The notes beneath the pieces are model-generated. The model worked only from the letters and a program-made list of their open reading frames with translations. It did no database searches and was not told the DNA's origin. A stretch of 64,000 nt of DNA from Gammaproteobacteria bacterium (GTDB lineage Bacteria > Pseudomonadota > Gammaproteobacteria > Natronospirales > DASSBR01). The stretch is from the NCBI GenBank assembly GCA_035701285.1, contig DASSNT010000032.1, positions 2,284 to 66,283 on the forward strand, given 5' to 3'. Position numbers and translations under genes: made by a program. Each line of letters starts with the position of its first letter. The stretch's first letter is position 1. Shown here one piece after another: positions 8,861-59,495 of this stretch.

Positions 8861-8906
8861 CTAATACGCATCCTGACGGTTGCGTATTCCGATGAAGCAT
8901 GCAATG

Positions 8907-8934
8907 ATAATCGCAACCAGGAGGTTGCGATTAT
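8907..8934 (+). promoter_or_regulatory. Perfect 12-bp hairpin covering part of the SD and start codon of the SRPBCC gene
   Basis: ATAATCGCAACC (8907-8918), loop AGGA, then GGTTGCGATTAT (8923-8934). SD AGGAGG is at 8919-8924 and the ATG at 8933-8935. Confidence 0.4.
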
Positions 8935-9379
8935 GAATGACCGTATAGAAAAAGCTGTTGAGCTCAAGGCGCCTGTCGCACGCGTGTGGCGTGCCCTTAC
9001 GGATTATCGGGAGTTCGGAGAATGGTTCCGCGTCGCGCTGGATGGGCCGTTCATCGTTGGTGAAACATGCCAGGGCCACATCACCTATCCGGGTTACGAA
9101 CACCTTAAGTGGCAAGCCACGGTGAAGGCGATGGAGGCTGAGCGGCTGTTTTCATTCACATGGCATCCATACGCTGTCGAGCAGGACGTCGATTATGGCA
9201 TCGAGCCGCAGACACTTGTTGAATTCCGGCTTGAACCGACGGACGACGGTACGCGTTTGATCATTTCGGAGTCGGGATTTGCCGCGTTGCCCGAAGGACG
9301 GCGTATGGAGGCGTTCCGGATGAACGAATCCGGCTGGGAGGAGCAGGCAGGGAATATCAGAAGCTATGTCGACGCCTGA
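8933..9379 (+). CDS. SRPBCC-superfamily protein (AHSA1/START-like)
   Basis: 148 aa. VELKAPVARVWRALTDYREFGEWF is typical of Aha1/SRPBCC domain proteins. Paired with an ArsR regulator, as is common for this family. Confidence 0.75.
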   Translation: MNDRIEKAVELKAPVARVWRALTDYREFGEWFRVALDGPFIVGETCQGHITYPGYEHLKWQATVKAMEAERLFSFTWHPYAVEQDVDYGIEPQTLVEFRLEPTDDGTRLIISESGFAALPEGRRMEAFRMNESGWEEQAGNIRSYVDA

Positions 9380-9692
9380 GGCCAATGCGGCGAAAACTTT
9401 TTCGGCGCTGGGCGACCCGACCCGGCTCATGCTGGTCATGAGGCTGAGCGACGGCCAGTCGCGGTCAATCATTCAACTATCTGCAGGCTTCAATCTGAGC
9501 CGCCAGGCCGTAACCAAGCACCTTCGCGTGCTTGAACAGGCGGGAATCGTTCAGGCCGATCGGGTGGGCCGGGAAAGCCGGTTTTCGTTCGTGTCGGAAC
9601 CGATTGAAGACGCGCAATCCTGCCTTGCTGCCGTCTCGCAGCAATGGGACGAGGCGCTGTTGCGACTGAAGACTTTTCTGAAAAGGGAGTAG
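9366..9692 (+). CDS. ArsR/SmtB-family transcriptional regulator
   Basis: 108 aa with a winged-HTH pattern (FSALGDPTRLMLVMRL ... LSRQAVTKHLRVLEQAGIV). Overlaps the preceding gene by 14 nt. Confidence 0.8.
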   Translation: MSTPEANAAKTFSALGDPTRLMLVMRLSDGQSRSIIQLSAGFNLSRQAVTKHLRVLEQAGIVQADRVGRESRFSFVSEPIEDAQSCLAAVSQQWDEALLRLKTFLKRE

Positions 9693-9728
9693 TCGACCGG
9701 CGAATGCAGTAGACTAGTGCGTCTCAAA

Positions 9729-9816
<88 letters not shown>

Positions 9817-9852
9817 ATCGAGCAGCGTTTGAATGCTGCTGGAAGGCGCGCA

Positions 9853-9881
9853 ATTAAAACAGCCGGCAGGCTTCGTGTCAA
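9853..9881 (-). promoter_or_regulatory. Candidate sigma-70 promoter for tRNA-Leu(CAG)
   Basis: On the minus strand: TTGACA (9881-9876), a 17-nt spacer, then TTTAAT (9858-9853). It lies about 40 nt upstream of the tRNA 5' end. Confidence 0.45.
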
Positions 9882-9921
9882 TGGCCGGGCGCATTTCCGA
9901 CAACTATTTTCAAGAGATTTC

Positions 9922-16263: not shown

Positions 16264-17799
16264 TCAGCTCATGTTCGCGGGCGATGAGTATGCCGGCAAC
16301 ACTTGGGCTAACGCACCCTGCTTGATCAACGCGGCCAGCGTTTCGATGTCCTTGTCGAGGCGCCGGTCGCCATCGTGCGCCTGCACATGTCCGCGTACCA
16401 GCGCGTGCAGGGCCTCGAGTGGCTCCGTCGTTTTCAGCGGACGCTGCACGTCGATCGCCGCGGCGGCAGCCAGCAGTTCTACCGCCAGAATGCGCGCGAC
16501 GTTGTCGGCGATCCGGTTCAGCTTGATGCCGGCCCACGGCGCCATGCTGACATGATCTTCCTGTCCGGCGGACGTCGAGATGCTGTCGACGCTGGCCGGA
16601 TGCGCGAGCGTCTTGTTTTCGGAAGCCAGGGCCGCGGCGGTGACATGCGCGATCATGAAGCCGGATTCGAGTCCCGGTTCGACCGTCAGGAACATCGACA
16701 GTTTCGGGTTGACCTGGCGCACCAGCAGGTCGCTGCGGCGCTCTGAAATGCCGCCGATTTCGGACGCGGCAATCGCCATGAAGTCGGACAGCATAGCGAT
16801 CGGCTCCGCGTGGAAGTTGCCGCCGGAGAGGACGTCGCCGTCGAAGATCAGCGGGTTGTCCGACACGCTGTTGGCTTCCAGCGCCAGCTTGTCCGCCGCG
16901 TGCGCGAGCGTATCGCGCACCGCGCCCAGCACCTGCGGCATACACCGCACCGAATACGGATCCTGAACGCGGCCGCAATCGCGATGGCTGTTCCAGATGT
17001 CGCTGCCGGTCAGCAGCGAGCGGAACTGTTTGGCGACGGCAATCTGTCCCGGCATCCGGCGCACCGCGTGGATGCGCGCATCGAATGGCGCGTAGCTGCC
17101 GGCAAGCGCTTCAACCGTCAGCGAACCGATCGCGATAGTCGCGGCAAGCAACTTGTCGACCTGCAGCAGACCTTCGATCGCCAGCGCCGCGCTGACCTGC
17201 GTGCCGTTCAGCAGTGCGAGGCCTTCCTTCGCCTGCAGTTGCGCAGGCTCACGGCCGGCGGCTTCGAGCACGTGCGGGCCGCTCAGAATTTGCCCGTTGT
17301 GATGCGCTTCGCCTTCGCCGATCAGCGCCAGTGCCAGGTGGGCGAGCGGCGCCAGATCGCCCGACGCGCCGACGGAGCCGCGGCTCGGGATCACCGGGAC
17401 GATGTTCGCGTTCAGCAACGCGAGCAGGGTGTCGACCACATCGGGCCGAATGCCCGACGCACCGACGGCGAGGCTGTTGGCTTTGAGAAGCATGATTCGG
17501 CGCACAACGTTGTCCGCGAACGGCTCGCCGACGCCGGCGGAATGGCTGCGCACCAGGTTGTATTGCAGGTCGATAACCTTGTCCGGTTCGATGCGCTGGC
17601 TCGCGAAAGCGCCGAAGCCGGTATTGATCCCGTAGCTGACCCGGCCGGTGCGCGCCACTTCCGACACGGTCGCAAGCGACCCCTGCATCTGTTCGCGCGC
17701 CTGGTCGCTGAGCACGACTTGCGGACGTTGTTGTTCGAAGGCGGCGACATCCTGCAAGGTCAAGTCGTGGCCGGTGAGGTGCAGAGTGGTTTGTGTCAT
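16264..17799 (-). CDS. hutH: Histidine ammonia-lyase
   Basis: 511 aa. MIO-forming GSVGASGDLAPLAHL motif. Confidence 0.95.
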   Translation of the reverse strand: MTQTTLHLTGHDLTLQDVAAFEQQRPQVVLSDQAREQMQGSLATVSEVARTGRVSYGINTGFGAFASQRIEPDKVIDLQYNLVRSHSAGVGEPFADNVVRRIMLLKANSLAVGASGIRPDVVDTLLALLNANIVPVIPSRGSVGASGDLAPLAHLALALIGEGEAHHNGQILSGPHVLEAAGREPAQLQAKEGLALLNGTQVSAALAIEGLLQVDKLLAATIAIGSLTVEALAGSYAPFDARIHAVRRMPGQIAVAKQFRSLLTGSDIWNSHRDCGRVQDPYSVRCMPQVLGAVRDTLAHAADKLALEANSVSDNPLIFDGDVLSGGNFHAEPIAMLSDFMAIAASEIGGISERRSDLLVRQVNPKLSMFLTVEPGLESGFMIAHVTAAALASENKTLAHPASVDSISTSAGQEDHVSMAPWAGIKLNRIADNVARILAVELLAAAAAIDVQRPLKTTEPLEALHALVRGHVQAHDGDRRLDKDIETLAALIKQGALAQVLPAYSSPANMS

Positions 17800-17811
17800 G
17801 AGTGAAAAAGG

Positions 17812-18999
17812 CTAAGAGTTGATCATCCGGCCGCGGTAATACACCGCGTCCGGTTTGAGGCCGCCTAACTGGTAACAAAGCATTTCCGGCGCCGGCAGAT
17901 CCCAGAGCGTGAAGTTGGCCTGTGTGCCGTGTTGCAGCATCCCGATGTCGTCCCGGCCGAGCGCGCGTGCGGCGTGGCTGGTAACTCCCTGCAGGGTTTC
18001 TTCCGGCGTCAGGCCGAAGAAGATTCCGGCCATGTGCATGATGGCTAGCAGGCTCGCCACCGGTGAGGAGCCGGGGTTGACGTCGGTCGCCAGCGCGATC
18101 GGCACGCCGTGGCGGCGGAACAGTTCGATCGGCGGTTTGCGCGTTTCACGCAGAAAATAGAACGCGCCCGGCAGCAGCACCGCAACCGTTCCCGCGTCAG
18201 CCATCGCCTCGACATCACGCTCTTCGGCGTACTCCAGGTGATCGCAGGACAGTGCGCCGAGTTCGGCCGCGCGCCGGGTCGCGCCGAAGTTCGAAAGCTG
18301 GTCGGTGTGCGCGCGCAGTCGCAAGCCAAGTTTGTCGGCGCGGTTCGCCAGTAGTGCAAGGTCGTCGCAATCGAAGGCGATGTTTTCGCAGAAAATATCG
18401 GCGGTATCGGCCAGGCCCGCCTCAGCGACCGCCGGCAGCATGTCGTCCACCACATGGCGCATGTAGGTTTGGCGGTCGCCGTCCTTCGGAATGCTGTGGG
18501 CGCCGAGAAACGTCGGCACGATGTCCATGTCGATTTCGCCGCGCAGCGCACCGATCGCGCGCAGCATTTTCATTTCGTCCTCGAACGTCAGGCCGTAGCC
18601 GCTTTTGATTTCGCAGGTTGTGAGACCTTCCGCCCGCAAGGCATGCAGGCGAGGCAGGGTGGCGGCGACCAGGTCTTCTTCGCTGGCCGCGCGCACGGCG
18701 CGGACGGTCGATAAAATACCGCCGCCCGCACGAGCGATGTCGGCATAGCTCGCCCCACGCAGTTTGGCTGCATGTTCGGCCATGCGTTCGCCGGCGTACA
18801 GCGCATGCGTATGGCAGTCGATGAAGCCGGGCAGCATGATACGATTCCCGGCATCGAAAACTTCCGCCGCTGGCGCGTCTGCGGGCGGATCGAATGCCGC
18901 GATTTTGCCGTTTGCTATCGCGATACTGCGAAAGCCAGCCTGTGCCGCGCCGTCCGTCATCGGGTAGATGCGGGCGTTGTTGATAATTAGGTCGTACAC
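17812..18999 (-). CDS. hutI: Imidazolonepropionase
   Basis: 395 aa. Amidohydrolase fold (PGFIDCHTH) with full-length HutI-like sequence. Confidence 0.9.
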   Translation of the reverse strand: MYDLIINNARIYPMTDGAAQAGFRSIAIANGKIAAFDPPADAPAAEVFDAGNRIMLPGFIDCHTHALYAGERMAEHAAKLRGASYADIARAGGGILSTVRAVRAASEEDLVAATLPRLHALRAEGLTTCEIKSGYGLTFEDEMKMLRAIGALRGEIDMDIVPTFLGAHSIPKDGDRQTYMRHVVDDMLPAVAEAGLADTADIFCENIAFDCDDLALLANRADKLGLRLRAHTDQLSNFGATRRAAELGALSCDHLEYAEERDVEAMADAGTVAVLLPGAFYFLRETRKPPIELFRRHGVPIALATDVNPGSSPVASLLAIMHMAGIFFGLTPEETLQGVTSHAARALGRDDIGMLQHGTQANFTLWDLPAPEMLCYQLGGLKPDAVYYRGRMINS

Positions 19000-19019
19000 G
19001 GGCGGCTAGGATACACAGA

Positions 19020-20342
19020 ATGACAAACAGACTCACCTTTCAGTACCTGCTGACGCCAGCCGGAATGGAGCGCGATCGCACGCTGGAACTCAGTGAGGCC
19101 GGCACGATCACGGCGATCGGACCGGCGGCCGGCCCGGCGGACGGCTTCCTGGCGCTGCCCGGCATGCCTAACGCACACAGCCATGCCTTTCAGCGTGCGC
19201 TGGCGGGATCTGCCGAGGCGCGCCTGGGCGAGGATTCGTTCTGGAGCTGGCGCGAAGCGATGTACCGGCTCGCCAACCGGGTAACGCCGGACGACATGCT
19301 CGTGATCGCGCGCCAGGCATTTGCCGATATGCTGCGCGGTGGGTACACCACCGTCGCGGAGTTTCATTATCTTCACGGGCTGCCGGACGGCCGCTGCGGC
19401 GCCGCGATGGCGGACGCGGTTATCGAGGCTGCCGCCGAGATGGGTATCCGGCTCACCCTGTTGCCGGTGTTCTACCAGGCCGGCGGTTTCGATGCGGCTC
19501 CGCAACCGGAGCAGCGCCGTTTCGTGCATGAATCGCTCGACGATTATCTGGGGTTGCTTGAAGATCTGCGCGGCAAAACGGCGCTGGGCGTGGCGCCGCA
19601 TTCACTGCGTGCGGTGCCGGCGGCGCAATTGCCGGCGCTGACGGACACCGCCCGCGAACTGTTGGGGGCGGACTGCCCGATTCACATTCATATCAGCGAG
19701 CAGACAGGCGAGGTGGACCAGTGCCGCGAGCGCCACGGGGCGACGCCTGTTGAATGGCTGGCACAGCATGTGGCGCTGGATCGGAACTGGAACCTGGTGC
19801 ACGCGACGCATGCCACTGCCGAAGAGCGCCGGCTGATTCAGGAACATGGCGCGAACGTGGTTCTGTGTCCGTTAACGGAAGCGTATCTCGGCGATGGTCT
19901 CTTCGCCGCCGGCGGGTTCGACGGGCGCATCGCGATCGGGTCCGACAGCAATATCCGGGCCGACGCCATCGAGGAGCTGCGCTGGCTGGAGTTCGGTCAG
20001 CGCCTGGCAGACCGCAAGCGGGCGCGGCTGGCGACGTCACAGGGACTGGGCGTGCCGCTCTGGTCGGCGGCAGCGCAAGGTGGCGCCGCGGCGGCCGGCG
20101 GCGTCGGCGGGGCTATCGAGATAGGCAAACCGGCCGACCTTGTCGTGCTGGGCGCCGATTCACCGGCACTCGCGGGGCATGACGACGCGACGCTGCTGGA
20201 CGCGCTGCTGATCGGCGGCAGCCGGGCTGATATCGCTACGGTTTACGTGGGCGGGCGGAAGCGGGTCGAACGAGGCGCGCTGGCGGGACAGGCCGATCCG
20301 TTGCCTGACTTCGACGCGGCGGTCCGGCGCCTGCTTCAGTAG
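19020..20342 (+). CDS. hutF: Formimidoylglutamate deiminase
   Basis: 440 aa. LPGMPNAHSHAFQR and HISEQ motifs of the HutF/guanine-deaminase-like amidohydrolases. Confidence 0.85.
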   Translation: MTNRLTFQYLLTPAGMERDRTLELSEAGTITAIGPAAGPADGFLALPGMPNAHSHAFQRALAGSAEARLGEDSFWSWREAMYRLANRVTPDDMLVIARQAFADMLRGGYTTVAEFHYLHGLPDGRCGAAMADAVIEAAAEMGIRLTLLPVFYQAGGFDAAPQPEQRRFVHESLDDYLGLLEDLRGKTALGVAPHSLRAVPAAQLPALTDTARELLGADCPIHIHISEQTGEVDQCRERHGATPVEWLAQHVALDRNWNLVHATHATAEERRLIQEHGANVVLCPLTEAYLGDGLFAAGGFDGRIAIGSDSNIRADAIEELRWLEFGQRLADRKRARLATSQGLGVPLWSAAAQGGAAAAGGVGGAIEIGKPADLVVLGADSPALAGHDDATLLDALLIGGSRADIATVYVGGRKRVERGALAGQADPLPDFDAAVRRLLQ

Positions 20343-21067
20343 TAGTGTGCGCGGTGTGCCTGGCGCGGCATGGCGCCCGGCAGTTCGCGGGCGGCGACGA
20401 AAGCCAGGTAGCCGATATACCCGCCGGAGATGACATCGCCGAGAAAGTGATATTCGGAGACGACTAGCGCGGCCGCGAGCGCGCAGATGGCGAGCCAGCC
20501 CAACGGCCGCAATCGCGGATAGTAGTGCATGACGGCGAACGCGAGGGCGCAGGCAATGGCCATGTGGCCGGAGGGAAAGCCGAAGAAGTTGTCGCCGGCG
20601 CTGAGCCAGCGAAACTCGAAATGATACGGGTGGTCGAGCCAGTAGCGGGTGTTGACGCGGCCGAAGACAGCCTTGAGCAGGTCTTTGGCCGTGTAGCTGA
20701 ACGGCAGGGCGGTGCCGATGACCTGCAGCAGGCAGACGAAGCGCCACCCGGCGTGCCGGCGCCGGAGGATGACGTAGCCGATCCAGCTGACGACGGTGAT
20801 AATGGCGACGAAGACGTCGAGCAGATCGGGGAACTCCATTTCGGTGACGAAGCCGGCGCCGCTTTCGCTCAGACTGCCGGCAACGAACTGGGCGAGCGGC
20901 AGGTCGATCCACGCGACCGCAATGGCAGTGGCGGCCGTAACGACGAGCAGTAGTGCCAGCATACGCGGCCAGTCGCGCAGCACCAGCGACCGCGCGTTTT
21001 CCGGGGGCGGCGGGTAGTCGGACGACCGCGTGATACTATCCAGGTGAATTCTTTCTTCAGCTTCCAT
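20336..21067 (-). CDS. PAP2-family phosphatase (membrane)
   Basis: 243 aa. Multiple TM segments. PAP2 motifs FPSGHMA and SEYHFLGDV. Confidence 0.8.
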   Translation of the reverse strand: MEAEERIHLDSITRSSDYPPPPENARSLVLRDWPRMLALLLVVTAATAIAVAWIDLPLAQFVAGSLSESGAGFVTEMEFPDLLDVFVAIITVVSWIGYVILRRRHAGWRFVCLLQVIGTALPFSYTAKDLLKAVFGRVNTRYWLDHPYHFEFRWLSAGDNFFGFPSGHMAIACALAFAVMHYYPRLRPLGWLAICALAAALVVSEYHFLGDVISGGYIGYLAFVAARELPGAMPRQAHRAHYY

Positions 21068-21896
21068 GCGCAGGATTACGATGACTGAGGTCGCCCCTTA
21101 TAAGGTGCGTGAGCCGACCGCCGAGGAAAAACGGGTGGTGGTCAGCATTCCGCATACCGGTACTTATGTTCCCGACGATATTGCGGCCAGTTTTGCGTCC
21201 GATGCGATTCGTTCGCTGCCGATGACGGACTGGCATCTGCATCATTTATACGATTTTCTTCCGCGTCTCGGTGTCACCACACTATACGCGACCTGGAGCC
21301 GATTTGTCGCCGATTTGAACCGTCCGCCAACGGACCAGCCGTTGTATCCGGGTCGCTTCGAGACCGGAATCGTGGCGGAGAAGACGTTCTGGGGCGATAC
21401 GATTTATGCGCAGGCGCCCGAGGCGGCCGAGGTCGAGCGGCGCAAGCGGCAGGTGCATGAGCCGTATCACCGGAAGCTTGCGGAGATTCTGGACGCGAAG
21501 CGGGAGAAGTTCGGACGCGTGGTGTTGATCGATGCGCACAGTGTCGCGTCGCGAGCCAGCTTGTTGCACGGGGAGTTGGAAAAAGAAATTTACCTTGGCA
21601 ATCGGGATGGCGTGACCTGCGGCGACTGGCTGATCGATCATGTTGCGGAGCGCTTTGGCGATGCCGGCCTGGCGGTGTCGTACAACGATCCGTACAAGGG
21701 CGGTTACATTACCGACCATTACGGCCGGCTGGAGGGTGTTGAGGCGTTGCAGATAGAAATGGCCGAGCGGATTTATATGGACGAGGATGATCCGCAGGCG
21801 GCGCTGTCCGATCCGAAATTCGAGAAGACGCGCGGGGTGTTGCGCGATTTGTTTGCTTCTTTGTTGTTGCAGGCGGAAGAGAAGATTCGCTCCTGA
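21066..21896 (+). CDS. hutG: N-formylglutamate amidohydrolase
   Basis: 276 aa, FGase family (VVSIPHTGTYVP, LIDAHS). The start may be the ATG at 21081. Confidence 0.85.
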   Translation: MRRITMTEVAPYKVREPTAEEKRVVVSIPHTGTYVPDDIAASFASDAIRSLPMTDWHLHHLYDFLPRLGVTTLYATWSRFVADLNRPPTDQPLYPGRFETGIVAEKTFWGDTIYAQAPEAAEVERRKRQVHEPYHRKLAEILDAKREKFGRVVLIDAHSVASRASLLHGELEKEIYLGNRDGVTCGDWLIDHVAERFGDAGLAVSYNDPYKGGYITDHYGRLEGVEALQIEMAERIYMDEDDPQAALSDPKFEKTRGVLRDLFASLLLQAEEKIRS

Positions 21897-34774: not shown

Positions 34775-38484
<3,710 letters not shown>

Positions 38485-49858: not shown

Positions 49859-50887
49859 ATGAAAGGCCCGGTCGCTATCGCGGTTGATGTCATGAGCGGC
49901 GATCGCGGCCCGTCGGTCGTGATCGATGCGGCGCTCGAGTGTCTGCATGAGGCGCCGAATCTGGAGCTGATCCTGGTTGGCGATACCGAGGTTGTCGAGC
50001 CGCTGGTTGCCGGGCATGGCCGCGCCGACGACAAGCGTCTGCGCCTGCAGCACGCCTCCGAGGTCGTCGGCATGGACGAGCCGCCGCAGCAGGCCTTGCG
50101 CGGCAAGAAAGATTCGTCGATGCGGGTGGCGATCAACCTGGTCAAGGAAGGCGTGGCGCAGGCGTGCATCAGTGCCGGCAACACCGGCGCGCTGATGGCC
50201 ACGGCGCGCTTCGTGCTGAAAACGCTGCCGGGGATCGACCGGCCGGCGATCATTTCGCCGATCCCGGCGATGAACGGCCATACGCTGATGCTCGATCTCG
50301 GCGCGAATACCGACTGCACGCCCGAGCACCTGTTTCAGTTCGGCGTGATGGGCTCGGCGCTCGCGACTGCCGCCTACAACATCGAGCAGCCGGCCATCGG
50401 TCTGCTGAATGTCGGCTCCGAGGAAATCAAGGGCAACGATCGCGTCAAGCAGGCGGCGCAGTTGCTGGGCGACAGCGGCCTCAATTACATCGGTTTCGTC
50501 GAAGGCAACGATATCTTTTCCGGCCGCGTCGATGTCGTCGTCAGCGACGGCTTTGTCGGCAATGTTGCGCTGAAGACCATCGAAGGCCTCGCGAAAATGA
50601 TTGGCGGTTATATCCGTCAGGAATTCACCCGCACCTCGTTTACCAAGGTACTCGGCGGCATCTCGTCGCCAGTGTTGCGCGCGCTCAAGCGCCGCCTCGA
50701 TCCGCGCCTGTATAATGGCGCGAGTTTGCTCGGCTTGAACGGCATCGTGATCAAGAGCCATGGCAGCGCGGACCAGGTGTCGTTTGCCAACGCTATCCGC
50801 ATCGCGACGCTGGAAGCCGAAAAGCAGGTCCCGAAGCGCATTACGCGGCTGCTTGAGAGCCAGCTTGCGAAGGAACATCACGAATGA
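49859..50887 (+). CDS. plsX: Phosphate acyltransferase PlsX
   Basis: [11 protein letters not shown] and full-length PlsX similarity. The start is set at ATG 49859. Confidence 0.9.
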
Positions 50888-51852
50888 TTTATTCCCGGAT
50901 TCTCGGCACAGGGCATTATCTGCCCGACAACGTCGTTACCAACCTTGATCTTGAAAAGAAGGTTGAAACCAGCGACGAGTGGATTCGCACGAGAACCGGT
51001 ATTGAACGCCGCCACATCGCGTCCGAGGGCGAGACGACTTGCGACCTGTCGGAGCAGGCCGCCCTCCGGGCGATGGAAGCCGCCGGCGTCACCCCCGACG
51101 AGATTGATCTGATCGTCGTCGGCACCACCACGCCCGACCAGGTATTCCCGAACATGGGTTGCCTGCTGCAACAGCGCTTCGGCATTCATAACTGCCCGGC
51201 GTTCAGCCTGGAAGCGGCGTGCAGCGGCTTTATTTACGCGCTGTCGGTGGCCGACAAGTTTGTTCGCGCCGGAGAGGCGAAGCGGGCGCTTGTCGTCGGC
51301 GCCGAAACTCTGTCGCGTATGGTGGACTGGAGCGACCGTTCAACCTGTGTGCTGTTCGGGGACGGTGCGGGGGCCGTGGTGCTCGGACCGTCGGAGGAGC
51401 CCGGCATCATGTCCACCCATCTGCACGCCGATGGCCATTACAAGGATCTGTTGTTTTTCCCGGGCGGCGTCTCGAAGGGGTTCGACGCGTGGAAAGCCGG
51501 CGAGGCCTTCGTGCAGATGAAGGGCAACGAGGTGTTCCGCGTCGCCGTCAACACGCTGGGTCAGATCGTGAAGGAGACGCTGGCCGCGGCCGAGATGGAG
51601 CATGCGGAGATCGACTGGCTTGTGCCTCATCAGGCCAATCTGCGCATCATCGAAGCGACGGCCAAGAAACTCAAAATGCCGATGGAGCGCGTGGTTGTGA
51701 CGGTGCAGGAGCATGCCAATACCTCTTCGGCATCGGTGCCGATGGCGTTCGACGTTGCGGTGCGCGACGGCCGCATTCAGCGCGGGCAGACCGTCGTGAT
51801 GGAAGCCTTCGGCGGCGGCTTTACCTGGGGCTCGGTGCTGCTTCGGTACTAG
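50884..51852 (+). CDS. fabH: 3-oxoacyl-ACP synthase III
   Basis: 322 aa. Active-site Cys (EAACSGF), HQAN and GGGFTWG. ATGA overlap with plsX. Confidence 0.95.
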
Positions 51853-51895
51853 AAATTCCCGGACGAGCGGCCATTTGCTTTGTTGTGGCCGCGTA

Positions 51896-51901
51896 TATAA
51901 T
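51896..51901 (+). promoter_or_regulatory. Consensus -10 hexamer TATAAT in the fabH/ACP spacer (candidate cassette promoter)
   Basis: TATAAT lies 18 nt upstream of ATG 51920 and 30 nt upstream of ATG 51932. Only a weak -35 (TTGCTT/TTTGCT) is visible. Confidence 0.3.
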
Positions 51902-51919
51902 CGACGCTGACCAAAGCGC

Positions 51920-52198
51920 ATGGGGAACCCAATGGAATCGGAAACGGTTGAAGGGGAGGTTGCGGCGATGCTCGTCGAGGCCGTGAATCTGGATATCGCT
52001 CCGGCAGACATCGATCCGCAACAACCGCTCTTCGGCGGCCAGGGTATCGGGCTGGACTCGATCGATGCGCTCGAGTTGTCGCTGGCGATATCGGTCAAGT
52101 ACGGCTTCCAGATGCGCGCCGACGACGCGCAACGGCATCAGGCCTTCGCCAACCTCCAATCCCTCAGCCGATACATTCATACGCATCGACAGAAATAG
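51920..52198 (+). CDS. Dedicated acyl carrier protein (phosphopantetheine-binding)
   Basis: 92 aa with a GLDSIDALE Ser attachment motif. The alternative start ATG 51932 has a better SD (GGGGA). Confidence 0.8.
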   Translation: MGNPMESETVEGEVAAMLVEAVNLDIAPADIDPQQPLFGGQGIGLDSIDALELSLAISVKYGFQMRADDAQRHQAFANLQSLSRYIHTHRQK

Positions 52199-52200
52199 TC

Positions 52201-53547
52201 GTGGCCTTTTCTTTTCTGAATGGCTATGCCAACGATGCGCCCGTCGCCTGGCACGATGGGCGCGCTGTCGGGCGGCACGAGTTTGCGGCCGACGTGGCGG
52301 CGCTTCGAGCGCGTTTGCCGGTTGCCCGGTACCTGATCAACCTTTGCGACAACCGCTATGCCTTTCTGACGGCGTTCGCCGCGGCGCTGGCAGACCGGCG
52401 CATTACGCTGCTGCCGCCGGATGCCGGCGATGCAGGCCTGCTGGGTCTTTGCCGGCAGTACGAAGCCGCCGCCGTTGTTTCCGATCGGTCGCTGCCGTCG
52501 CTGCCGGTCCCGGTTTGTCAGTGGCGCCGCGCTGGCGGCGACAGTGGGAAAGCGAATGCCGTCCCGGCATCGTTTTCATCCGACCAGACGGCCGTGGTCG
52601 TACATACCTCCGGGAGTACCGGCGCGCCGCAGCCGCACATCAAGACATGGGGCGCGCTGGTGCGGCGCGCGCGTGCTGTGGGAGCGCGATTGGCACTCAA
52701 AGAGAGCCGCATCGCCGCAGTTGTAGCCACCGTGCCTTCCCAGCACATGTACGGCATCGAAAACGCGATCATGCTGCCGCTGCAGCATGGACTCGCGGTG
52801 CATGGCGAGCGGCCGCTGTTTCCGGCCGATGTGGCTGCCGCCCTCGACAAGCCGTCCCTGCTGGTGACCACGCCAATTCACCTGCGGGCTTTTACTGCGG
52901 CCGGGGTCGGTTGCACAGGCGTACGATTGATTTTGTCGTCGACGGCACCGCTCGCGATCGAGCAGGCGCGACGGGCGGAAGATTCCCTGGGCGCGCCCGT
53001 TGTCGAAATATATGGCAGCACTGAAACCGGTGTCGTCGCCACCCGGCGCACCAGCAGCGCCGATGAATGGCGCCTGCTCGAGTCTTTGCGGCTGCGGACG
53101 GAGTGCGGCGCGGTGCTCCTCGACGACGGTGGAGCCGATGTTGTCGTGGAGCTGCACGACTGCATCGAACTGCTCGGTGACGGCCGGTTCCGGCTGGGGC
53201 CGCGCGCGCAGGACATCGTCAAAGTGGCCGGCAAACGCGCTTCGCTCGCGGCGCTCACCGAGTCGTTGTGCGCCATCGCGGGGGTCGAGGACGCGGCATT
53301 CCTTGCGCCACACGAGCATGACGAGGCCGCATCGCGGCTGATTGCGTTCGTTGTTGCCCCACGCTGCAGTGAAGCGGAAATTGCCGCAAAGCTGCGGGCG
53401 CGTATCGACCCGATATTCCTGCCGCGACCGCTGGTCAAGGTCGAGGCACTGCCGCGCAATGCCACCGGAAAGCTTCCGCGCGAAGCGCTCCAGGAGCTGT
53501 GGGAAACGATTGCGTCAGGATGGACGCGTAGCTCAGATGCCGTCTGA
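52201..53547 (+). CDS. Adenylate-forming (ANL) acyl/aryl-ACP ligase
   Basis: 448 aa with a GTG start 2 nt after the ACP stop. Motifs HTSGSTGAPQ, YGSTETG, VKVAGKR and PRNATGKLPR. Confidence 0.85.
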   Translation: MAFSFLNGYANDAPVAWHDGRAVGRHEFAADVAALRARLPVARYLINLCDNRYAFLTAFAAALADRRITLLPPDAGDAGLLGLCRQYEAAAVVSDRSLPSLPVPVCQWRRAGGDSGKANAVPASFSSDQTAVVVHTSGSTGAPQPHIKTWGALVRRARAVGARLALKESRIAAVVATVPSQHMYGIENAIMLPLQHGLAVHGERPLFPADVAAALDKPSLLVTTPIHLRAFTAAGVGCTGVRLILSSTAPLAIEQARRAEDSLGAPVVEIYGSTETGVVATRRTSSADEWRLLESLRLRTECGAVLLDDGGADVVVELHDCIELLGDGRFRLGPRAQDIVKVAGKRASLAALTESLCAIAGVEDAAFLAPHEHDEAASRLIAFVVAPRCSEAEIAAKLRARIDPIFLPRPLVKVEALPRNATGKLPREALQELWETIASGWTRSSDAV

Positions 53548-53571
53548 CAAGCGCCGTCTTCCAGGTGGCAG

Positions 53572-54747
53572 ATGACGCCGATATCCGTCAGCGCATACAC
53601 CGCTACCAACGCCGCCGGAACCGGCCGCGCGGCGCTGCTGAATGCCCTGGTTGAGCGACGCTCCGGGCTGGCGCCGCTGCGGGAATACTCGGATCTGGAA
53701 GCATTCGTCGGCGAAATGGCCGGTCTTGATGCCATGCCGGTCGCGGCGGAGTTCGCGGAATACGACTGCCGCAATCACCGCCTCGCGCAACTGGCGCTGG
53801 ATCAGGACGGGTTTCGCGCGGCCGTGGCTCGCGCCGCCGCGCGCCACGGGGGCGGGCGCGTCGCGGTCGTCATGGCAACCAGCACGTCGGGTATCCGCGA
53901 GACCGAGGACGCCTACGACTATATGGCGGCGCAGGGGCGGCTGCCGGACGACTTTTGTTTCGACACCACGCACAGCATTCATTCGCTGGGGGAATTCGTG
54001 CGCCTGGCGTTACGCCTGGCCGGGCCGGCTTTCACGATCTCGACCGCCTGTTCGTCAAGCGCGAAAGTCTTCGCCAGCGCCGCGCGTCTGATCGCCGCCG
54101 GTGTCGTTGATGCAGCGGTGGTCGGCGGCGTCGACACGCTGTGCCGTAATACCTTGTACGGCTTCAATTCACTGCAACTGGTGTCGCGCGAGCCGTGCCG
54201 GCCGTGCGATCGTGATCGCGACGGCATCAGCATCGGCGAGGGAGCAGGCTTCGCCTTGCTGGAACGCGGGGATGCCGACGGCTTGCGGCTCATCGGCTAT
54301 GGCGAAAGCAGCGACGCCTGGCATATGTCCGCGCCGCATCCAAATGGACGCGGCGCACAGGCGGCGATGCGCTCCGCTTTGCGGTGCGCCGGCGTCGATG
54401 CTGCCGCAATCGATTACATCAATCTGCACGGCACCGCCAGCATTATCAACGACCGTATCGAAGACAAGGCGGTGGCGGCGGTGTTTGGCGGCACCAGGCC
54501 GTGCAGCTCGACCAAAGGCTGGACCGGACATACCCTCGGCGCCGCCGGCGCGACCGAGGCGGTCATCGCTTGCCTGTGCCTGGAGAACGGACTGGCGCCG
54601 GGCTGCCTGAACTCGGCCAGCGTGGATCCGACGTTCGCCAGCCGGGTGCTGCTGGACAACGACAGTCGGACATTGCGCCGGGTGTTGAGTAACTCGTTGG
54701 GGTTTGCGGGCAACAATTGCAGCCTGATTTTCGAGCGCTGCGGATGA
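53572..54747 (+). CDS. Beta-ketoacyl-ACP synthase (KAS I/II-type KS)
   Basis: 391 aa. Active-site Cys (ISTACSSS), His residues (HMSAPHP, NLHGTAS) and SSTKGWTGHTLGAAG. Confidence 0.9.
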   Translation: MTPISVSAYTATNAAGTGRAALLNALVERRSGLAPLREYSDLEAFVGEMAGLDAMPVAAEFAEYDCRNHRLAQLALDQDGFRAAVARAAARHGGGRVAVVMATSTSGIRETEDAYDYMAAQGRLPDDFCFDTTHSIHSLGEFVRLALRLAGPAFTISTACSSSAKVFASAARLIAAGVVDAAVVGGVDTLCRNTLYGFNSLQLVSREPCRPCDRDRDGISIGEGAGFALLERGDADGLRLIGYGESSDAWHMSAPHPNGRGAQAAMRSALRCAGVDAAAIDYINLHGTASIINDRIEDKAVAAVFGGTRPCSSTKGWTGHTLGAAGATEAVIACLCLENGLAPGCLNSASVDPTFASRVLLDNDSRTLRRVLSNSLGFAGNNCSLIFERCG

Positions 54748-55532
54748 AAGTATGGCTTGAGGGCATCGGCATCTGGGGGCCCGGCATGACCGGCTGGGCC
54801 GGTTGCCGGGCACGGCTGACCTGCGGGTCCGGCAAGCTTGACGATTTCCGGGAACCACCGGCTGCCGTATTGCCGGCGCAGGAACGGCGGCGCAGCACTG
54901 CCAGCGTCCGTCTGGCAGCGGAAGTTGCCGCGCAGGTCTGCGCAGCCGCCGGGCGCGACGCGGCAGATTATGCGACCGTGTCGGCATCGAGCGTCGGCGA
55001 CCTCGCCACGGTAGACGCCATTTGCAGGGCGCTGGTGGCTGATGCGCGGCTGCTGTCGCCCACCCGGTTTCACAATTCGGTGCACAACGCCCCCGGCGGC
55101 TATTGGAGCATCGTGAGCGGTTGCGAGCAGCCGGCCAATGCATTGGCCGCCGGTCCTGCGTCGTTCGCTGCCGGTCTTCTCGAAGCGGCGGTTCAATGCG
55201 CCTTGGAGGCGCGCCCGGTGATGTTGCTGGTTTACGATCTGCCGGGGCCTTCGCCGCTGGCCGAGGCGGCCGGCATCGGCGCCGGCTTTGCAGCGGCATT
55301 AGGGTTGAGTCCCGCGCCCGCTGCCGGCGCGCCGGCATTGGAAATCCGCTATGATGAAAATCAGACGCCGGAGACGGTCATGGAGGACCCGGCGCTTGAA
55401 GCGCTGCGTCGCGGCGCGCCCGGCGCCCGATGCCTGCCGTTGCTGTCGGCAGTCGCAGGCGGCGCAGGCGGCGCCGTGAAGCTGGGCATGGGAGCCGGAA
55501 GCCTGGCCATCACAGTCAGTCCGGCACAATGA
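54744..55532 (+). CDS. KS-like chain-length-factor protein (Ketoacyl-synt_2 type, no active-site Cys)
   Basis: 262 aa. ATGA coupling to the KS gene. Motifs LPAQERRRST, SSVGDLATVDAICRAL and FHNSVHNAPGGYWSI. Confidence 0.75.
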   Translation: MKVWLEGIGIWGPGMTGWAGCRARLTCGSGKLDDFREPPAAVLPAQERRRSTASVRLAAEVAAQVCAAAGRDAADYATVSASSVGDLATVDAICRALVADARLLSPTRFHNSVHNAPGGYWSIVSGCEQPANALAAGPASFAAGLLEAAVQCALEARPVMLLVYDLPGPSPLAEAAGIGAGFAAALGLSPAPAAGAPALEIRYDENQTPETVMEDPALEALRRGAPGARCLPLLSAVAGGAGGAVKLGMGAGSLAITVSPAQ

Positions 55533-55557
55533 AATCATAACGACGCAAGGAAGCAAA

Positions 55558-56295
55558 ATGCCGGTAGCCGACGCCGTTGTAGTGGTGATTCCCGCTTATG
55601 AGGAAGAGGAAACAATAACGTCTGTCGTCGCCGGGGCGCGACAGCAGATTTTGACGGTCATCGTCGTGGACGACGGCTCCACCGACGCAACCGGCGCTCG
55701 CGCTGCTGCGGCGGGTGCAACCGTGCTGACGCACCCGAAGAATCAGGGCAAGGCGGCGGCCTTGCGCAGCGGATTCGACTGGGCGCTCCGTCTGGGGGCG
55801 CGCGCGGTGATCACGCTGGACGGCGACGGACAGCACGATCCGGCGGACATCCCGCGGCTCGTTGATGCCGCGGATCGGCGTCCTGGCGCGCTGATCATCG
55901 GCGCCCGCAGTTCGCGCCGGGAAGGCGCCCCGCGGGCACGGTACTGGGCCAATGGTGTCGCGGATTTCTGGATTTCCCGCGCCGCCGGCTGCCGCATCAG
56001 CGACAGCCAGTCCGGATTCAGGCTATATCCGGAAGCGCTGCTGAGAAGCTGCCGACTCGCGGTAACCAGGGAGAAGAGCTTCGTGTTTGAAAGCGAAATT
56101 TTGATTGACGCGGCGCTCTCCGGCTATCCGGTGGTGGCGGTCCCGGTAGCGAGTCGCTACCCCGTGAACGCGCGCAAGAGTCATTTCCGTCCGGTAGTCG
56201 ACATCAGCCGGATCGTCCGCATGGTCGCCTGGAAGATCGTCTCCGGACGCCACCTGCCCGAACGCGCCTCGGCGCCGAGGTCCGAAACCCGATGA
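55558..56295 (+). CDS. Family 2 glycosyltransferase
   Basis: 245 aa. Motifs VVIPAYEEE, VVDDGSTD and DGDGQHD. No TM segment. Confidence 0.85.
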   Translation: MPVADAVVVVIPAYEEEETITSVVAGARQQILTVIVVDDGSTDATGARAAAAGATVLTHPKNQGKAAALRSGFDWALRLGARAVITLDGDGQHDPADIPRLVDAADRRPGALIIGARSSRREGAPRARYWANGVADFWISRAAGCRISDSQSGFRLYPEALLRSCRLAVTREKSFVFESEILIDAALSGYPVVAVPVASRYPVNARKSHFRPVVDISRIVRMVAWKIVSGRHLPERASAPRSETR

Positions 56296-57521
56296 AAACC
56301 GACATTCTGGTCATTGGCGGCGGCCCCGGCGGCTCGACTGCCGCAACGCTGCTCGCTCGACAGGGCTGGCAGGTCACGCTGCTGGAAAAGGCGCATCATC
56401 CCCGATTTCATATCGGCGAATCGCTGCTGCCGATGAACATGCCGATCCTGCAGGAGCTGGGGGTATTCGATGCCGTCGCGAAGATCGGCGTGCCCAAGCA
56501 TGGCGCCGACTTTGCCGGTCCAACTGACACTTCTTTCAGTACTTATTACTTCCGCGACGCGCTCAGGTGCCGCTTTCCTCACGCATTCCAGGTCAAGCGC
56601 GAGGAATTTGACGAACTGCTGTTCCGTCATGCGGCGGCTAACGGCGTGATTGCACGCGAAGGCGTGCAGGTCGAACAGGTGGCCTGGGAGGCGGACGGGC
56701 GCGCGGTTGCGGAGATCGTGGACGAAGTCGGCAACCGGTCCCGCATCGAGGCGCGCTACGTGGTGGATGCCAGCGGCCGCGATACTCTGCTGGCCAACCA
56801 GTTCAAGCTCAAGCGCCAGAACCCGAAGCACCGCAGCGCGGCGATGTATGCGCATTTTCGCGGCGTGACGGGCCGCAATGGCCAGGACGCGGGCAACATC
56901 GGCATCTATTGGATTGAGCACGGCTGGGGCTGGATGATTCCGCTGCGTAACGGGATCACGAGCGTCGGTTGTGTCTGCTGGCCGGAGTATCTCAAGCAGC
57001 GCCGCGGCATCGCGCAGGACAAGTTCCTGCTGGACACGTTGCGCGCGGTGCCGTCGATGTGGAGCCGACTGGAAAACGCGGAGATGGTGTCGGACGTGAT
57101 GATGGCGGGCAATTATTCCTATGATTGCTCGCAGATCGCCGGCAAGGGCTGGATCATGGTCGGCGATGCCTTTTCCTTTCTTGACCCGGTATTTTCCTCC
57201 GGCGTCTACCTGGCGATGTCGAGCGCACGGCGTGCTGCCGCCGCGGTGGACGCGATTTTGCGCAAGCCGGCCCGCGAAGGGGCTTTGCAGCGGCGCTACG
57301 AGCGCGAGACGCGGAGCGGGCTGAAGAAGTTTTCGTGGTTTATCTATCGGTTTACGACGCCGACGATCCAGAAGCTGTTTAACCAGCCGCGCAATACCTT
57401 GCAAATTCAGCAGGCGGTCACGTCGATGCTCGCCGGAGACGTGTATCGTAACCGGCCGGCTGATCGGCGCTTGCTGTTGTTCAAATTGATTTATCGCCTT
57501 ACCGGGGCTCGTGCCGCTTAG
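56292..57521 (+). CDS. FAD-dependent oxidoreductase, flavin-dependent halogenase-like
   Basis: 409 aa. Motifs GGGPGG, EKAHHPRFHIGESLLP, GWGWMIPL (WxWxIP) and GDAFSFLDPVFSSG. ATGA coupling to the GT gene. Confidence 0.75.
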   Translation: MKTDILVIGGGPGGSTAATLLARQGWQVTLLEKAHHPRFHIGESLLPMNMPILQELGVFDAVAKIGVPKHGADFAGPTDTSFSTYYFRDALRCRFPHAFQVKREEFDELLFRHAAANGVIAREGVQVEQVAWEADGRAVAEIVDEVGNRSRIEARYVVDASGRDTLLANQFKLKRQNPKHRSAAMYAHFRGVTGRNGQDAGNIGIYWIEHGWGWMIPLRNGITSVGCVCWPEYLKQRRGIAQDKFLLDTLRAVPSMWSRLENAEMVSDVMMAGNYSYDCSQIAGKGWIMVGDAFSFLDPVFSSGVYLAMSSARRAAAAVDAILRKPAREGALQRRYERETRSGLKKFSWFIYRFTTPTIQKLFNQPRNTLQIQQAVTSMLAGDVYRNRPADRRLLLFKLIYRLTGARAA

Positions 57522-57538: not shown

Positions 57539-57650
57539 GAGAGGCGGCGCGGCACCGTCTTCCAGGGACGCCGTGAATACGTCCCTGTAGGCTGCGGTCG
57601 CAGCATCCATGCTGCTCACGCCCCTGGAAGACGGCGCCGCACCGCCTCTC
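57539..57650 (+). repeat. REP-like hairpin element, copy C (long form); probable cassette terminator
   Basis: 29-nt arms GAGAGGCGGCGCGGCACCGTCTTCCAGGG and CCCTGGAAGACGGCGCCGCACCGCCTCTC (2 mismatches) around a 54-nt loop. It begins 18 nt after the halogenase stop. Confidence 0.75.
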
Positions 57651-57735: not shown

Positions 57736-57998
57736 GTGGTCTTCCAAGACAATATTTCCGGTTTCAGCGCCCCGGAGAGTCGTCCGGGCAAGGCGCCGAG
57801 CCGAAAGCGTAGCCGCCTACGGTGAGGATTGGCAACGCAGCACGGGCGGCTCTCCGGGGCGCCCGAAGGGAGTTCGCCTGCCGGCCCCTGGCCGCGTTGC
57901 GGCGACTTGACATGGATGGCCATGCCGGCGTCACCGCGCCTTGCCAGGAACCGGCAGGCGAGCTCTGAAATCCGGCAATATTGTCTTGGAAGACCACT
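57736..57998 (+). other. 263-nt element with perfect 21-bp terminal inverted repeats (candidate structured ncRNA or MITE)
   Basis: GTGGTCTTCCAAGACAATATT (57736-57756) is the exact reverse complement of 57978-57998. Pairing continues inward (CCGG, TTTCAG/CTGAAA, CAAGGCGC/GCGCCTTG) around asymmetric bubbles. Confidence 0.6.
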
Positions 57999-58002
57999 TG
58001 CG

Positions 58003-58090
58003 CGAAAGTGGCGGAACTGGTAGACGCGCTGGCTTTAGGTGCCAGTGGGGCGCTCCCCCGTGAGAGTTCGAGTCTCTCCTTTCGCACCAC
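58003..58090 (+). tRNA. tRNA-Leu (anticodon UAG)
   Basis: GCGAAAGTGGCGGAACTGGTAGACGCGCTGGCTTTAGGTGCCAGTGGGGCGCTCCCCCGTGAGAGTTCGAGTCTCTCCTTTCGCACCA folds as a class II cloverleaf. The anticodon loop is TT-TAG-GT. CCA is encoded. Confidence 0.9.
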
Positions 58091-58162: not shown

Positions 58163-59495
58163 ATGGAGGTTTCAGTCGAATCAACCGGCGCACTTGAGCG
58201 CCGTATGCGGGTGCAGATCCCGTCCGAGCAGGTGGAAAGCGAGGTGGACAAGCGCCTGCAGTCGGTGGGCCAGCGCGCCAAGCTGAAAGGTTTCCGGCCC
58301 GGCAAGGTGCCGATGAAGGTTGTGCGCCAGCAGTATGGCGCGGAAGTGCGCCAGGACGTGGTGCGCGATCTGCTGCAGTCGAGTTGGGTCGATGCGATCA
58401 AGGAGCAGCAACTGGAGCCTGCCGGCGGGCCGAAGATCGACGATATCAGCGCCGAGCCCGGTTCAAACATGGAATATACGGCCATCTTCGAGGTGTATCC
58501 GGAGATCAAGGTCGACAACGTCGACAAACTCAAGGTTTCGCGCCCGGAGGTTGAAATTCAGCCGGCTGACATCGACAGCATGCTTGAGCGCCTGCGCGAG
58601 CAGAATGCGTCCTTCGAGCCGGTTGAGCGGCCGGCAGCCGAGGGCGACCAGGTGAAGGTTGATTTCCACGGCACGAAGGATGGCAAGGCCTTTCCGGGCG
58701 GTCATGGCGAGAACGTCGACGTCGTGCTCGGCGAGGGCCGTATGATTCCGGGCTTCGAGTCCGGTATCGAGGGCATGAGCGCCGGCGAAGAGCGCGACAT
58801 CGAGGTGACTTTCCCGGACGAGTACCCGGTTGAGGACCTGAAGGGCCAGAAGGCCAATTTCCATCTGAAGGCGCACGAGGTGGCCGAGCGCCGGGTGCCG
58901 GGTGCCGGAGATCGATGACGAGTTTGTCAAAAAGTTCGGCATCGAGTCTGGCGGCGTGGACGCGTTGCGCGACAAGATTCGCGACAACATGCAGCGCGAG
59001 CTGGATGAAAATGTCCGCACCAAGTTGAAAAATCAGCTTATGGACCAATTATTCGAAGCTAACCCGGTCGATGTGCCCGCGGCGCTGGTCGAAAACGAGG
59101 TCCAGCGCGTGCGCGAGGACACGCTGCGGCGGATGGGCATCAACGACCCGAAGCAGGCGCCGGACCTGCCGAACGATATGTTCGAGGAGCAGGCCCGCAA
59201 GCGGGTCGGGCTCGGCCTGCTGATCGGCGAGTTGATCAAGCGCGAGGAGATCAAGGCGGACGAGGAGCGCGTGCAGCAGAAGCTTGAAGCGATTACGGCG
59301 AGCTATGGCGAATCGGAACAGATGATTCGCGCCTACCGCGCCAATGCCGATGCAATGCGTCAGGTTGAAAGCCTGGTGCTGGAAGACCAGGTGACGGACT
59401 GGCTGCTGGAGCGCGCTGACGTCACTGCCGAGCCGAGCAGTTTTGCTGCAGTGATGGGGATGGAACCGGCTGCGGCCGAAGAGGAGAAATCATGA
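58163..59495 (+). pseudogene. tig: Trigger factor, interrupted by a frameshift (7-bp tandem duplication at 58893-58906)
   Basis: ORF 58163-58918 carries the N-domain (GFRPGKVP signature) and the FKBP PPIase domain. ORF 58902-59495 (GTG) carries the C-domain. Deleting one GGGTGCC copy gives a continuous ...AERRVPEIDDEFVKKFG... protein of about 441 aa. Confidence 0.85.

Follow-up and report, generated by a model that had tools for sequence, protein, structure and literature searches.

The aryl-polyene (APE)/xanthomonadin pathway, which makes pigment lipids, is very common in bacteria, and its xanthomonadin product is a brominated aryl polyene ester. A dedicated ketoreductase (KR) and dedicated dehydratases (DH) are regarded as core, non-replaceable parts of APE systems. 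The core of an APE cluster, in the 2020 account of Grammbitter and colleagues, reportedly consists of a ketosynthase (KS), an acyl carrier protein (ACP), a chain length factor (CLF), a DH, a KR and a transporter. Analysis of a 64,000-nucleotide stretch of a contig from a gammaproteobacterial assembly (DASSNT010000032.1, referred to here as the window) identified a predicted APE-type cassette of six genes with no KR, DH or transporter gene beside it. This cassette belongs to a monophyletic APE lineage of uncultured Gammaproteobacteria in which the KR gene and both DH genes are missing at the cassette, and which is undescribed in the literature searched.

The window was compared with the APE clusters of Escherichia coli CFT073, Xenorhabdus doucetiae and Acinetobacter baumannii (ApeA-R). 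It resembled them in having an ApeE/F-type ACP, an ApeH-type ligase, an ApeO:ApeC-type KS-CLF pair and an ApeJ-type family 2 glycosyltransferase (GT2) in a tight same-strand operon. Unlike those clusters, it had only one ACP and lacked ApeQ, ApeI/ApeP, the ApeK thioesterase, the ApeD acyltransferase, ApeL/ApeM (LolA/MMPL), the ApeR initiation KS and the ApeB methyltransferase. The window also carries a flavin halogenase, for which the ApeA-R clusters were not searched.

All six genes are encoded on the forward strand downstream of plsX-fabH: the APE-type, ApeE/F-like ACP (51920-52198; PF00550, NF006617), an adenylate-forming ANL ligase of the aryl-acid:ACP kind resembling ApeH, XanA2 and ArcT (52201-53547, GTG start; PF00501, PF13193), an elongating ApeO-type KS (53572-54747; PF00109/PF02801, NF006618), a half-size ApeC-type CLF partner (54744-55532; PF13723), an ApeJ-like GT2 (55558-56295; PF00535) and a flavin-dependent halogenase (56292-57521; PF04820/PF01494). 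The genes are separated by gaps of 2, 24 and 25 nucleotides (nt) or joined by ATGA overlaps (KS/CLF and GT2/halogenase). An initial annotation of this stretch had described the same layout of open reading frames (ORFs), with coordinates that agree with ours; every motif that it quoted was present in the translations, and Pfam and NCBIfam searches confirmed each of its gene assignments.

Assignment of the six genes to an APE/xanthomonadin-type type II polyketide synthase (PKS) core with a predicted halogenase, as the initial annotation had proposed, was upheld, because the ACP and KS scored above the PRK09184 and PRK09185 cut-offs, the KS and CLF matched ApeO and ApeC, the KS was nested among full APE clusters in a phylogenetic tree, and the halogenase had both the expected signature and homologues in full APE clusters. 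The ACP scored 102.7 bits against NF006617/PRK09184 (cut-off 70), and failed the acpP equivalog (TIGR00517, 22 bits against a cut-off of 70). Similarly, the KS scored 510 bits against NF006618/PRK09185 (cut-off 407), and failed the housekeeping equivalogs for fabF (TIGR03150, 215 against 494 bits) and KAS I (NF005935, 143 against 630 bits). The best matches to the KS in the PDB were 6qsp_A (265 bits) and then 7f28_B, and the only matches to the CLF were the ApeC chains 7f28_A and 6qsp_B. These structures are the ApeO:ApeC KS/CLF heterodimers of Xenorhabdus and Acinetobacter (PMC8358021).

The residues expected of each component were found. The catalytic triad of the KS (Cys160-His286-His320) was intact and invariant in seven clade members, as was the DSID of the ACP, in which the phosphopantetheine serine is S47 within GLDSID. 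The first ATG of the ACP gene (51920) overlaps a conserved GGGGAA ribosome-binding site, and the related genes start at the equivalent of the ATG at 51932, so the ACP probably starts there and has 88 rather than 92 amino acids (aa). The CLF (95.6 bits against PF13723) has no catalytic cysteine, and its start overlaps the KS stop; a 262-aa protein on record is 100% identical to it, which supports the start at 54744, and all the named proteins among its 1888 homologues are called 'beta-ketoacyl synthase chain length factor'. The features of an actinorhodin-type minimal PKS were not found, as the CLF is a 262-aa PF13723 protein without the full KS fold and there is no cyclase or aromatase in the window.

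Predictions for the ligase and glycosyltransferase were less specific. The best NCBIfam match of the ligase was the 4-coumarate-CoA ligase family TIGR02372 (139 bits; cut-off 335), which places it at the family level only, and no solved structure matched at E<1e-10. It shared 41.6% identity with the ligase in the full Halothiobacillus cluster (locus L007), and its TSGSTG, YGSTETG and A10 GK motifs were kept throughout the clade. The GT2 best matched the polyprenyl-phospho-N-acetylgalactosamine (GalNAc) synthase PpgS, at 96 bits and under the cut-off, and was 65% identical to the GT2 of L008, a clade contig described below.

The halogenase scored 107 bits against PF04820, and the nearest solved structures were 5buk, CmlS (3i3l) and PltA (5dbj). 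Its signature includes GGGPGG at residues 9-14, K69, GWGWMIP (WxWxIP) from residue 211 and FLDPVFSSG. The lysine and WxWxIP context, by which the initial annotation had proposed to judge the enzyme, were thus recovered on alignment, K69 being aligned with the lysines of the CmlS VKKPS and 5buk GFPKK motifs; on an assumed tag offset, the CmlS residue would be the catalytic K71. These motifs were kept in L001, L003 and L005. Several of the nearest solved relatives presumably act on substrates bound to a carrier protein. Homologues 45-54% identical to the window halogenase were present in many full APE clusters, which is a measure of similarity rather than established orthology. No flavin reductase is encoded in the cassette; an FMN_red protein is found at 35124-35720 of the window, unlinked.

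The partners that normally accompany these genes were searched for with all of the proteins of the complete Halothiobacillus diazotrophicus APE cluster (L007), which includes an ACP, a ligase, ApeI, an LpxL-type acyltransferase, LolA_3, MMPL, ApeP, KS, CLF, KR, GT2 and halogenase. In tblastn searches of the window this set matched the six cassette genes and nothing else. The L007 KR had no match in the 64 kb at E<0.01, and a Pfam survey found no adh_short domain, so no ketoreductase of the ApeQ/FabG3 type was detected in the window. There was no tblastn match to the ApeI or ApeP dehydratases in the window or in the related loci, and there can be no hidden small DH gene between the cassette genes because the gaps are 25 nt or less. 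LolA-like, MMPL and LPLAT acyltransferase genes were not found in the window either. About 50 further ORFs in the other 58 kb had only housekeeping functions in the Pfam survey (rseAB, degP, lepA, rnc, era, recO, rnr, the hut operon, metG, purMN, hda, valS, pepA, lptFG, pcnB, folK, panBC and others). The absence of partner genes therefore spans 52 kb upstream and 6.5 kb downstream of the cassette, well beyond the 5 kb on either side noted initially, and the absence of other fab genes downstream of fabH likewise held across the whole window. The one core chain-building function without a candidate in the window is the reductive loop; genes for export and lipid anchoring are absent as well.

One of the surveyed regions, at 16264-21896, is a histidine-utilisation set that is interrupted by a PAP2 gene and encodes two amidohydrolases, an N-formylglutamate amidohydrolase and a lyase for aromatic amino acids (606 bits). 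The lyase (16264-17799) was considered as a source of coumarate or another aryl acid and rejected, as its neighbours are of the imidazolonepropionase, amidohydrolase and N-formylglutamate amidohydrolase types, which is a hut operon.

Eight contigs including the window were assigned to the same clade by way of the closest CLF homologues (L003, L005, L090, L001, L092, L091 and L008 in addition to the window). The order in L003 was identical to that in the window, plsX-fabH-ACP-ligase-KS-CLF-GT2-halogenase. In L005 the order was fabH, a GGDEF gene on the opposite strand, ACP-ligase-acyltransferase-KS-CLF-GT2-halogenase and then tig-clpP-clpX, and L090 had the opposite-strand GGDEF gene followed by ACP-ligase-acyltransferase-KS-CLF-halogenase. 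L001 had plsX-fabH, an opposite-strand BNR gene, ACP-ligase-KS-CLF-halogenase and DedA; L092 had the opposite-strand BNR gene followed by the same five cassette genes; and L091 had the CLF, unrelated genes and then tig-clpP, so that tig-clpP downstream of the cassette, as in the window, was also found in L005 and L091. The largest version was in L008, with argG, a gene that was not assigned, asd and then ACP-ligase-acyltransferase-LolA-MMPL-KS-CLF-GT2. Compared with the common order ACP-ligase-ApeI-acyltransferase-LolA-MMPL-KS-CLF-ApeP-KR-GT2, as in L010, only ApeI, ApeP and KR are gone from L008, and they are gone from two separate positions. The acyltransferase, LolA and MMPL were all kept only in L008, while the acyltransferase alone was kept in L005 and L090 and was missing in the window, L003, L001 and L092. 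The GT2 was missing in L001, L090 and L092.

In a neighbor-joining tree of the KS, which was built without support values, the clade contigs formed one clade on a long stem that was sister to L007 and nested among full clusters. KS proteins were 69-80% identical within the clade and at most 64% identical to anything outside it. This placement among full clusters indicates that the reduction is derived and of single origin. Comparison of the gene orders suggests that loss of the KR and DH genes came first, and that the exporter, acyltransferase and GT2 were lost afterwards in individual lineages.

The exact CLF of the window was also present in sequencing run SRR25158421, together with two other variants from the clade. 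Two Logan runs, SRR25158421 and SRR25158192, contained clade loci (L002, L004, L006, L090 and L175), with three architectural variants in one run and two in the other. The presence of several variants per run indicates that related strains or species with different versions of the cassette coexist in one sample.

To place the clade among APE loci generally, 80 loci from GTDB species genomes and 80 from Joint Genome Institute (JGI) metagenomes were annotated with one set of components. The best KS match in the GTDB species genomes was 59% identical. Ninety-nine loci outside the clade reached at least 2 kb past the CLF, and within their fetched flanks a KR, ApeP and/or ApeI was found near the KS-CLF pair in 93, compared to none of the eight clade contigs. 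The commonest arrangement outside the clade was CLF followed directly by ApeP-KR. The six exceptions, with no KR or DH in the fetched flanks, were all of the Xanthomonadales type (L088, L043, L051, L070, L079 and L083). In L088, a metagenome-assembled genome (MAG) of the Rhodanobacteraceae, a unit of FAD oxidoreductase, KS and CLF stands alone among housekeeping genes (8576-11901). Exceptions of this kind indicate that dispersed APE genes are not unique to the clade of the window. APE clusters without KR and DH genes were not described in the literature searched.

In two JGI metagenome contigs (L112 and L114), otherwise typical APE genes were preceded, a few kb upstream, by a fabH-like gene and by another KS, which is divergent and has 36-37% identity to that of the window. 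The fabH-like gene in these loci may be a cluster-associated β-ketoacyl-ACP synthase III (KAS III), unlike the housekeeping fabH of the window.

The pattern of loss in the clade would also be expected if these cassettes were non-functional leftovers from the ongoing piecemeal loss of a full APE cluster. The contigs can be arranged in a stepwise size series (L008 > L005 > window/L003 > L001/L092 > L091), and the cassette proteins diverge much faster than their neighbours, with 61-88% identity between the window and L003 or L001 compared to 95-97% for FabH. Nevertheless, all cassette ORFs were intact in every clade member, and the ratio of nonsynonymous to synonymous substitution rates (dN/dS, by the Nei-Gojobori method) lay at 0.10-0.24 for each of the six genes whichever pair was compared (0.10-0.19 for the ACP; fabH, 0.02-0.03), and thus not near 1. 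The KS Cys/His/His, the ACP serine, the core motifs of the ligase and the halogenase lysine and WxWxIP were invariant in the clade, the -10 box described below was conserved, and the core persisted down to a CLF identity of 53%. Decay is therefore an improbable account of the cassette. Synonymous divergence (dS) of the cassette from L003 was 0.4-1.0, of the same order as that of fabH (0.8). The low dN/dS, the fabH-like dS and the invariant catalytic residues point to purifying selection and to vertical inheritance of the cassette together with its neighbours, rather than to a pseudogenised relic or a recent insertion. The reduced architecture is clade-wide and maintained by selection, and is not a one-off.

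The initial annotation had also proposed that the cassette stands in place of fabD-fabG-acpP-fabF and that its linkage to fabH has a functional logic. Gene order in the related contigs did not support this proposal. An opposite-strand gene parts fabH from the cassette in L001 (BNR) and L005 (GGDEF), and the cassette of L008 adjoins argG and asd with no fab neighbour, so the linkage to fabH is positional rather than a conserved operon. The site after plsX-fabH may well be an inherited accident of location, which forms part of the reading that we favour below.

The spacer between fabH and the ACP gene (51853-51919, forward strand) contains a -10-like TATAAT at 51896-51901, and a GGGGAA ribosome-binding site at 51922-51927 lies just past its end. 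In the window, L003, L005, L001 and L090, a (T)GTATAAT box was found about 20-25 nt before the GGGGAA site and start codon. In five of seven related loci its distance from the ACP start was fixed, regardless of which gene lay upstream, and the box was identical in L003. A promoter belonging to the cassette before the ACP gene is plausible because the box is kept whatever gene lies upstream. The earlier description of the cassette as self-promoted is thus supported as far as the box itself, which is present and conserved; a consensus scan of the window called no full sigma-70 promoter at TATAAT and found no acceptable -35 element. The spacer also contains a conserved upstream motif, AATTCC..CGG..GCGG, and a AATTCCGACCGGCGG-like motif was common to the window (51853-51872) and to the upstream sequences of L005, L090 and L008. 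In several clade members the AATTCCGACCGGCGG-like motif preceded the conserved -10 box by about 25-40 nt, and it is possibly a binding site for a regulator.

A pathway can be proposed for the cassette by analogy with the reconstituted APE pathway, which serves as the model for its steps (PMC8253772), and it is from such homologies that we infer the substrate, the order of steps and the role of the GT2. The ANL ligase would adenylate an aryl acid of the hydroxybenzoate type and load it onto the dedicated ACP. The halogenase would then halogenate the aryl ring, probably while it is bound to the ACP, and the ApeO-type KS with its half-size ApeC-type partner would extend the aryl-ACP with malonyl units. 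ApeJ has been proposed to add GalNAc to a lipid anchor and to move the ACP-bound chromophore onto that anchor (bioRxiv 10.1101/2020.12.19.423268). The ApeJ-like GT2 may therefore help to build a glycolipid anchor and/or offload the chain from the ACP, and would be a possible release step in the window. Ketoreduction and dehydration, which are needed for a polyene, and export would be supplied in trans, most likely with a dedicated KR/DH set encoded elsewhere in the genome.

We consider it about an even chance (roughly 0.5) that the cassette is a reduced, vertically inherited APE/xanthomonadin-type unit with its own promoter, for which KR, DH and export functions act in trans and dedicated KR and DH genes located elsewhere are the likeliest source. 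Dedicated partners are favoured because the FabG of fatty acid synthesis cannot replace ApeQ or FabG3 and because a split pathway has a precedent. FabG of A. baumannii was unable to take the place of ApeQ when APE synthesis was assayed in vitro (PMC8041823), and FabG1 and FabG2 from Xanthomonas campestris pv. campestris (Xcc) and E. coli FabG did not bring xanthomonadin back in a fabG3 mutant (PMC6859482). In Azoarcus sp. BH72 the pathway is functional when split between two unlinked loci, both of which are essential (PMC3949708). The 6 of 99 other loci that likewise have no KR or DH nearby also favour supply in trans. In a profile search for a relocated KR with the KRs of the nearest outgroups, the 120 matches listed were saturated by Acidiferrobacterales-type sequences, and the only 'Gammaproteobacteria MAG' match among those listed was from an unrelated assembly (GCA_003542715.1). 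A second CLF was sought in the clade MAGs by way of accession blocks, and only three proteins, all already known, carried accessions.

Several observations weigh against this reading. A search with the MMPL of L008 found nothing above 45% identity except itself, a result limited by the incompleteness of MAGs and by a word prefilter, and this suggests that the exporter, at least, was lost rather than relocated. The disappearance of three genes from two positions can as easily be explained by their having become unnecessary. Finally, the release step is not constant, as the GT2 and the acyltransferase are each missing in several members.

If the three genes did become unnecessary, the cassette may be a self-sufficient minimal pathway in which FabG and FabZ/FabA of type II fatty acid synthesis (FAS II) carry out reduction and dehydration, making ApeQ, ApeI and ApeP dispensable in this clade. 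L008, which is without all three reductive-loop genes at their two positions and keeps the remaining order, is what such a change would be expected to leave behind, and neither a KR nor a DH gene was found in the window, over 52 kb upstream and 6.5 kb downstream, or over 10 kb in L001. The long KS stem branch is compatible with adaptation to new partners, and the cassette is near plsX-fabH in four genomes. However, the failure of A. baumannii FabG in the in vitro assay cited above, together with the Xcc and E. coli FabG results, weakens the borrowing of FabG that the initial annotation had suggested. In addition, the ACP is still of the APE type (PRK09184) and is not AcpP-like, by the TIGR00517 score given above, the linkage to fab genes is not that of an operon, as the inserts in L001 and L005 and the L008 neighbourhood show, and neither fabG nor fabZ is adjacent to the cassette. 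Of the alternatives, which we place after the trans-supply reading in the order borrowing from FAS II, unreduced chemistry and decay, borrowing is the first, and we judge it rather unlikely.

The chemistry may instead have changed, in that the KS-CLF pair makes an unreduced halogenated aryl-β-keto or poly-β-keto chain that is released as a ketone, a pyrone or another non-polyene, and the lineage has an APE-derived type II PKS that is minimal and non-reducing. The clade core of ACP, ligase, KS and CLF, mostly with the halogenase, is invariant and under purifying selection, while every gene for lipid anchoring and export is dispensable, as would be expected for such an enzyme. On the other hand, no cyclase, aromatase, thioesterase or other release enzyme was found, the KS and CLF remain close to the polyene-making ApeO and ApeC with the standard KS triad kept, and the GT2 and acyltransferase kept in some members point to a lipid-anchored, APE-like product. 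Such a system is also without precedent in the literature searched, and both the unreduced product and the origin of a non-reducing PKS in this way seem very unlikely. A broader proposal takes in either outcome: a minimal APE unit of four or five genes (ACP, ligase, KS, CLF and halogenase) with no dedicated KR or DH anywhere in the genome, which uses FAS II or makes an unreduced halogenated aryl polyketide. We put this forward only tentatively, as rather unlikely.

A clade kept by selection without the three reductive genes, which are the only genes missing from L008, is a natural experiment on how well the APE synthase is insulated from fatty acid synthesis. If the partners of the cassette are encoded elsewhere in the genome, it would be one more split cluster and a caution for automated callers of biosynthetic gene clusters that demand a KR, a DH and a transporter. 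If the partners are truly absent, there would be cross-talk with FAS II or a new class of product; according to published work, canonical APE systems are unable to use FAS II.

The genes upstream of the cassette are maf (opposite strand), yceD, rpmF, plsX and fabH. Both fabH (50884-51852, forward strand; TIGR00747, 442 bits) and plsX (TIGR00182, 370 bits) are of the housekeeping type, and fabH is kept as the upstream neighbour in the window, L003, L001 and L005. The start of plsX is probably the ATG at 49859 rather than the TTG at 49748. Directly 3' of the halogenase stop is an inverted repeat with 32-nt arms and a 48-nt spacer (57539-57650, not assigned to a strand), which probably marks the 3' boundary of the cassette or is a transcript-end structure; no T-run terminator was called there. 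Both this repeat and the following tRNA-Leu(tag) (58002-58089, forward strand) are real, as first described, while the label 'REP-like' (repetitive extragenic palindromic) was not supported, as the hairpin is single-copy in the 64 kb. The tRNA gene is followed by tig-clpP-clpX-lon and serves as a mark of the downstream boundary. The GC content of the cassette is slightly higher than elsewhere (0.65-0.69 compared to 0.61-0.63), and a recent horizontal insertion at tRNA-Leu was considered; it was rejected, despite the GC content, on the basis of a dS close to that of fabH and synteny common to the relatives.

A structured element of about 260 nt (57736-57997) lies directly upstream of the tRNA gene and occurs once in the window. 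Two 23-nt hairpins are enclosed by an inverted repeat of 29 nt, whose arms (57736-57764 and 57969-57997) are 93% complementary. The element matched no Rfam family, and may be either an RNA that is uncharacterised or a small insertion. In the window a tandem duplication of 7 nt (CCGGGTG CCGGGTG, 58891-58904) breaks the trigger factor gene tig (58163-59495) into two ORFs. The L005 ortholog has a single CCGGGTG and is an intact 441-aa gene; either the split is an artefact of sequencing or assembly, or a housekeeping gene that is otherwise highly conserved has a genuine frameshift here.

Among described pathways, those of the xanthomonadin type share with the window both a single ACP with an aryl-acid ligase, as in Xanthomonas campestris pig, the Lysobacter xanthomonadin-like cluster and Rhodanobacteraceae loci (L030, L031, L044, L054 and L061), and the order KS-CLF-GT2-FAD enzyme. 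Unlike the window, the Xanthomonadales clusters have a divergent block next to these genes in which the KR (FabG3), dehydratases, LolA, MMPL and an acyltransferase are kept, and their FAD enzyme after the GT2 is only 23-27% identical to the window halogenase (KS, 48-54%). The arcuflavin genes of Azoarcus sp. BH72, arcA-L (azo3910-3921) and arcM-X (azo0253-0264), are xanthomonadin-like and, as in the window, include a halogenase homologue, a glycosyltransferase and KS/CLF genes (PMC3949708). The division of functions differs, as the KS-CLF locus of Azoarcus keeps a dehydratase and a reductase and the ligase and ACP are in the other locus, whereas in the window the ligase, ACP, KS and CLF are together and the KR and DH are missing. 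The nearest relatives with complete clusters are L007 and the Acidiferrobacterales-type metagenomic loci L094-L108, with identities to the window of 59-64% (KS), 46% (halogenase), 42% (ligase) and 43% (ACP). LolA and MMPL are also retained in L007 and in other full clusters such as L109-L111, and neither is on the short L094-L108 contigs. Unlike the window, L007 and L094-L108 retain ApeI, ApeP and the KR.

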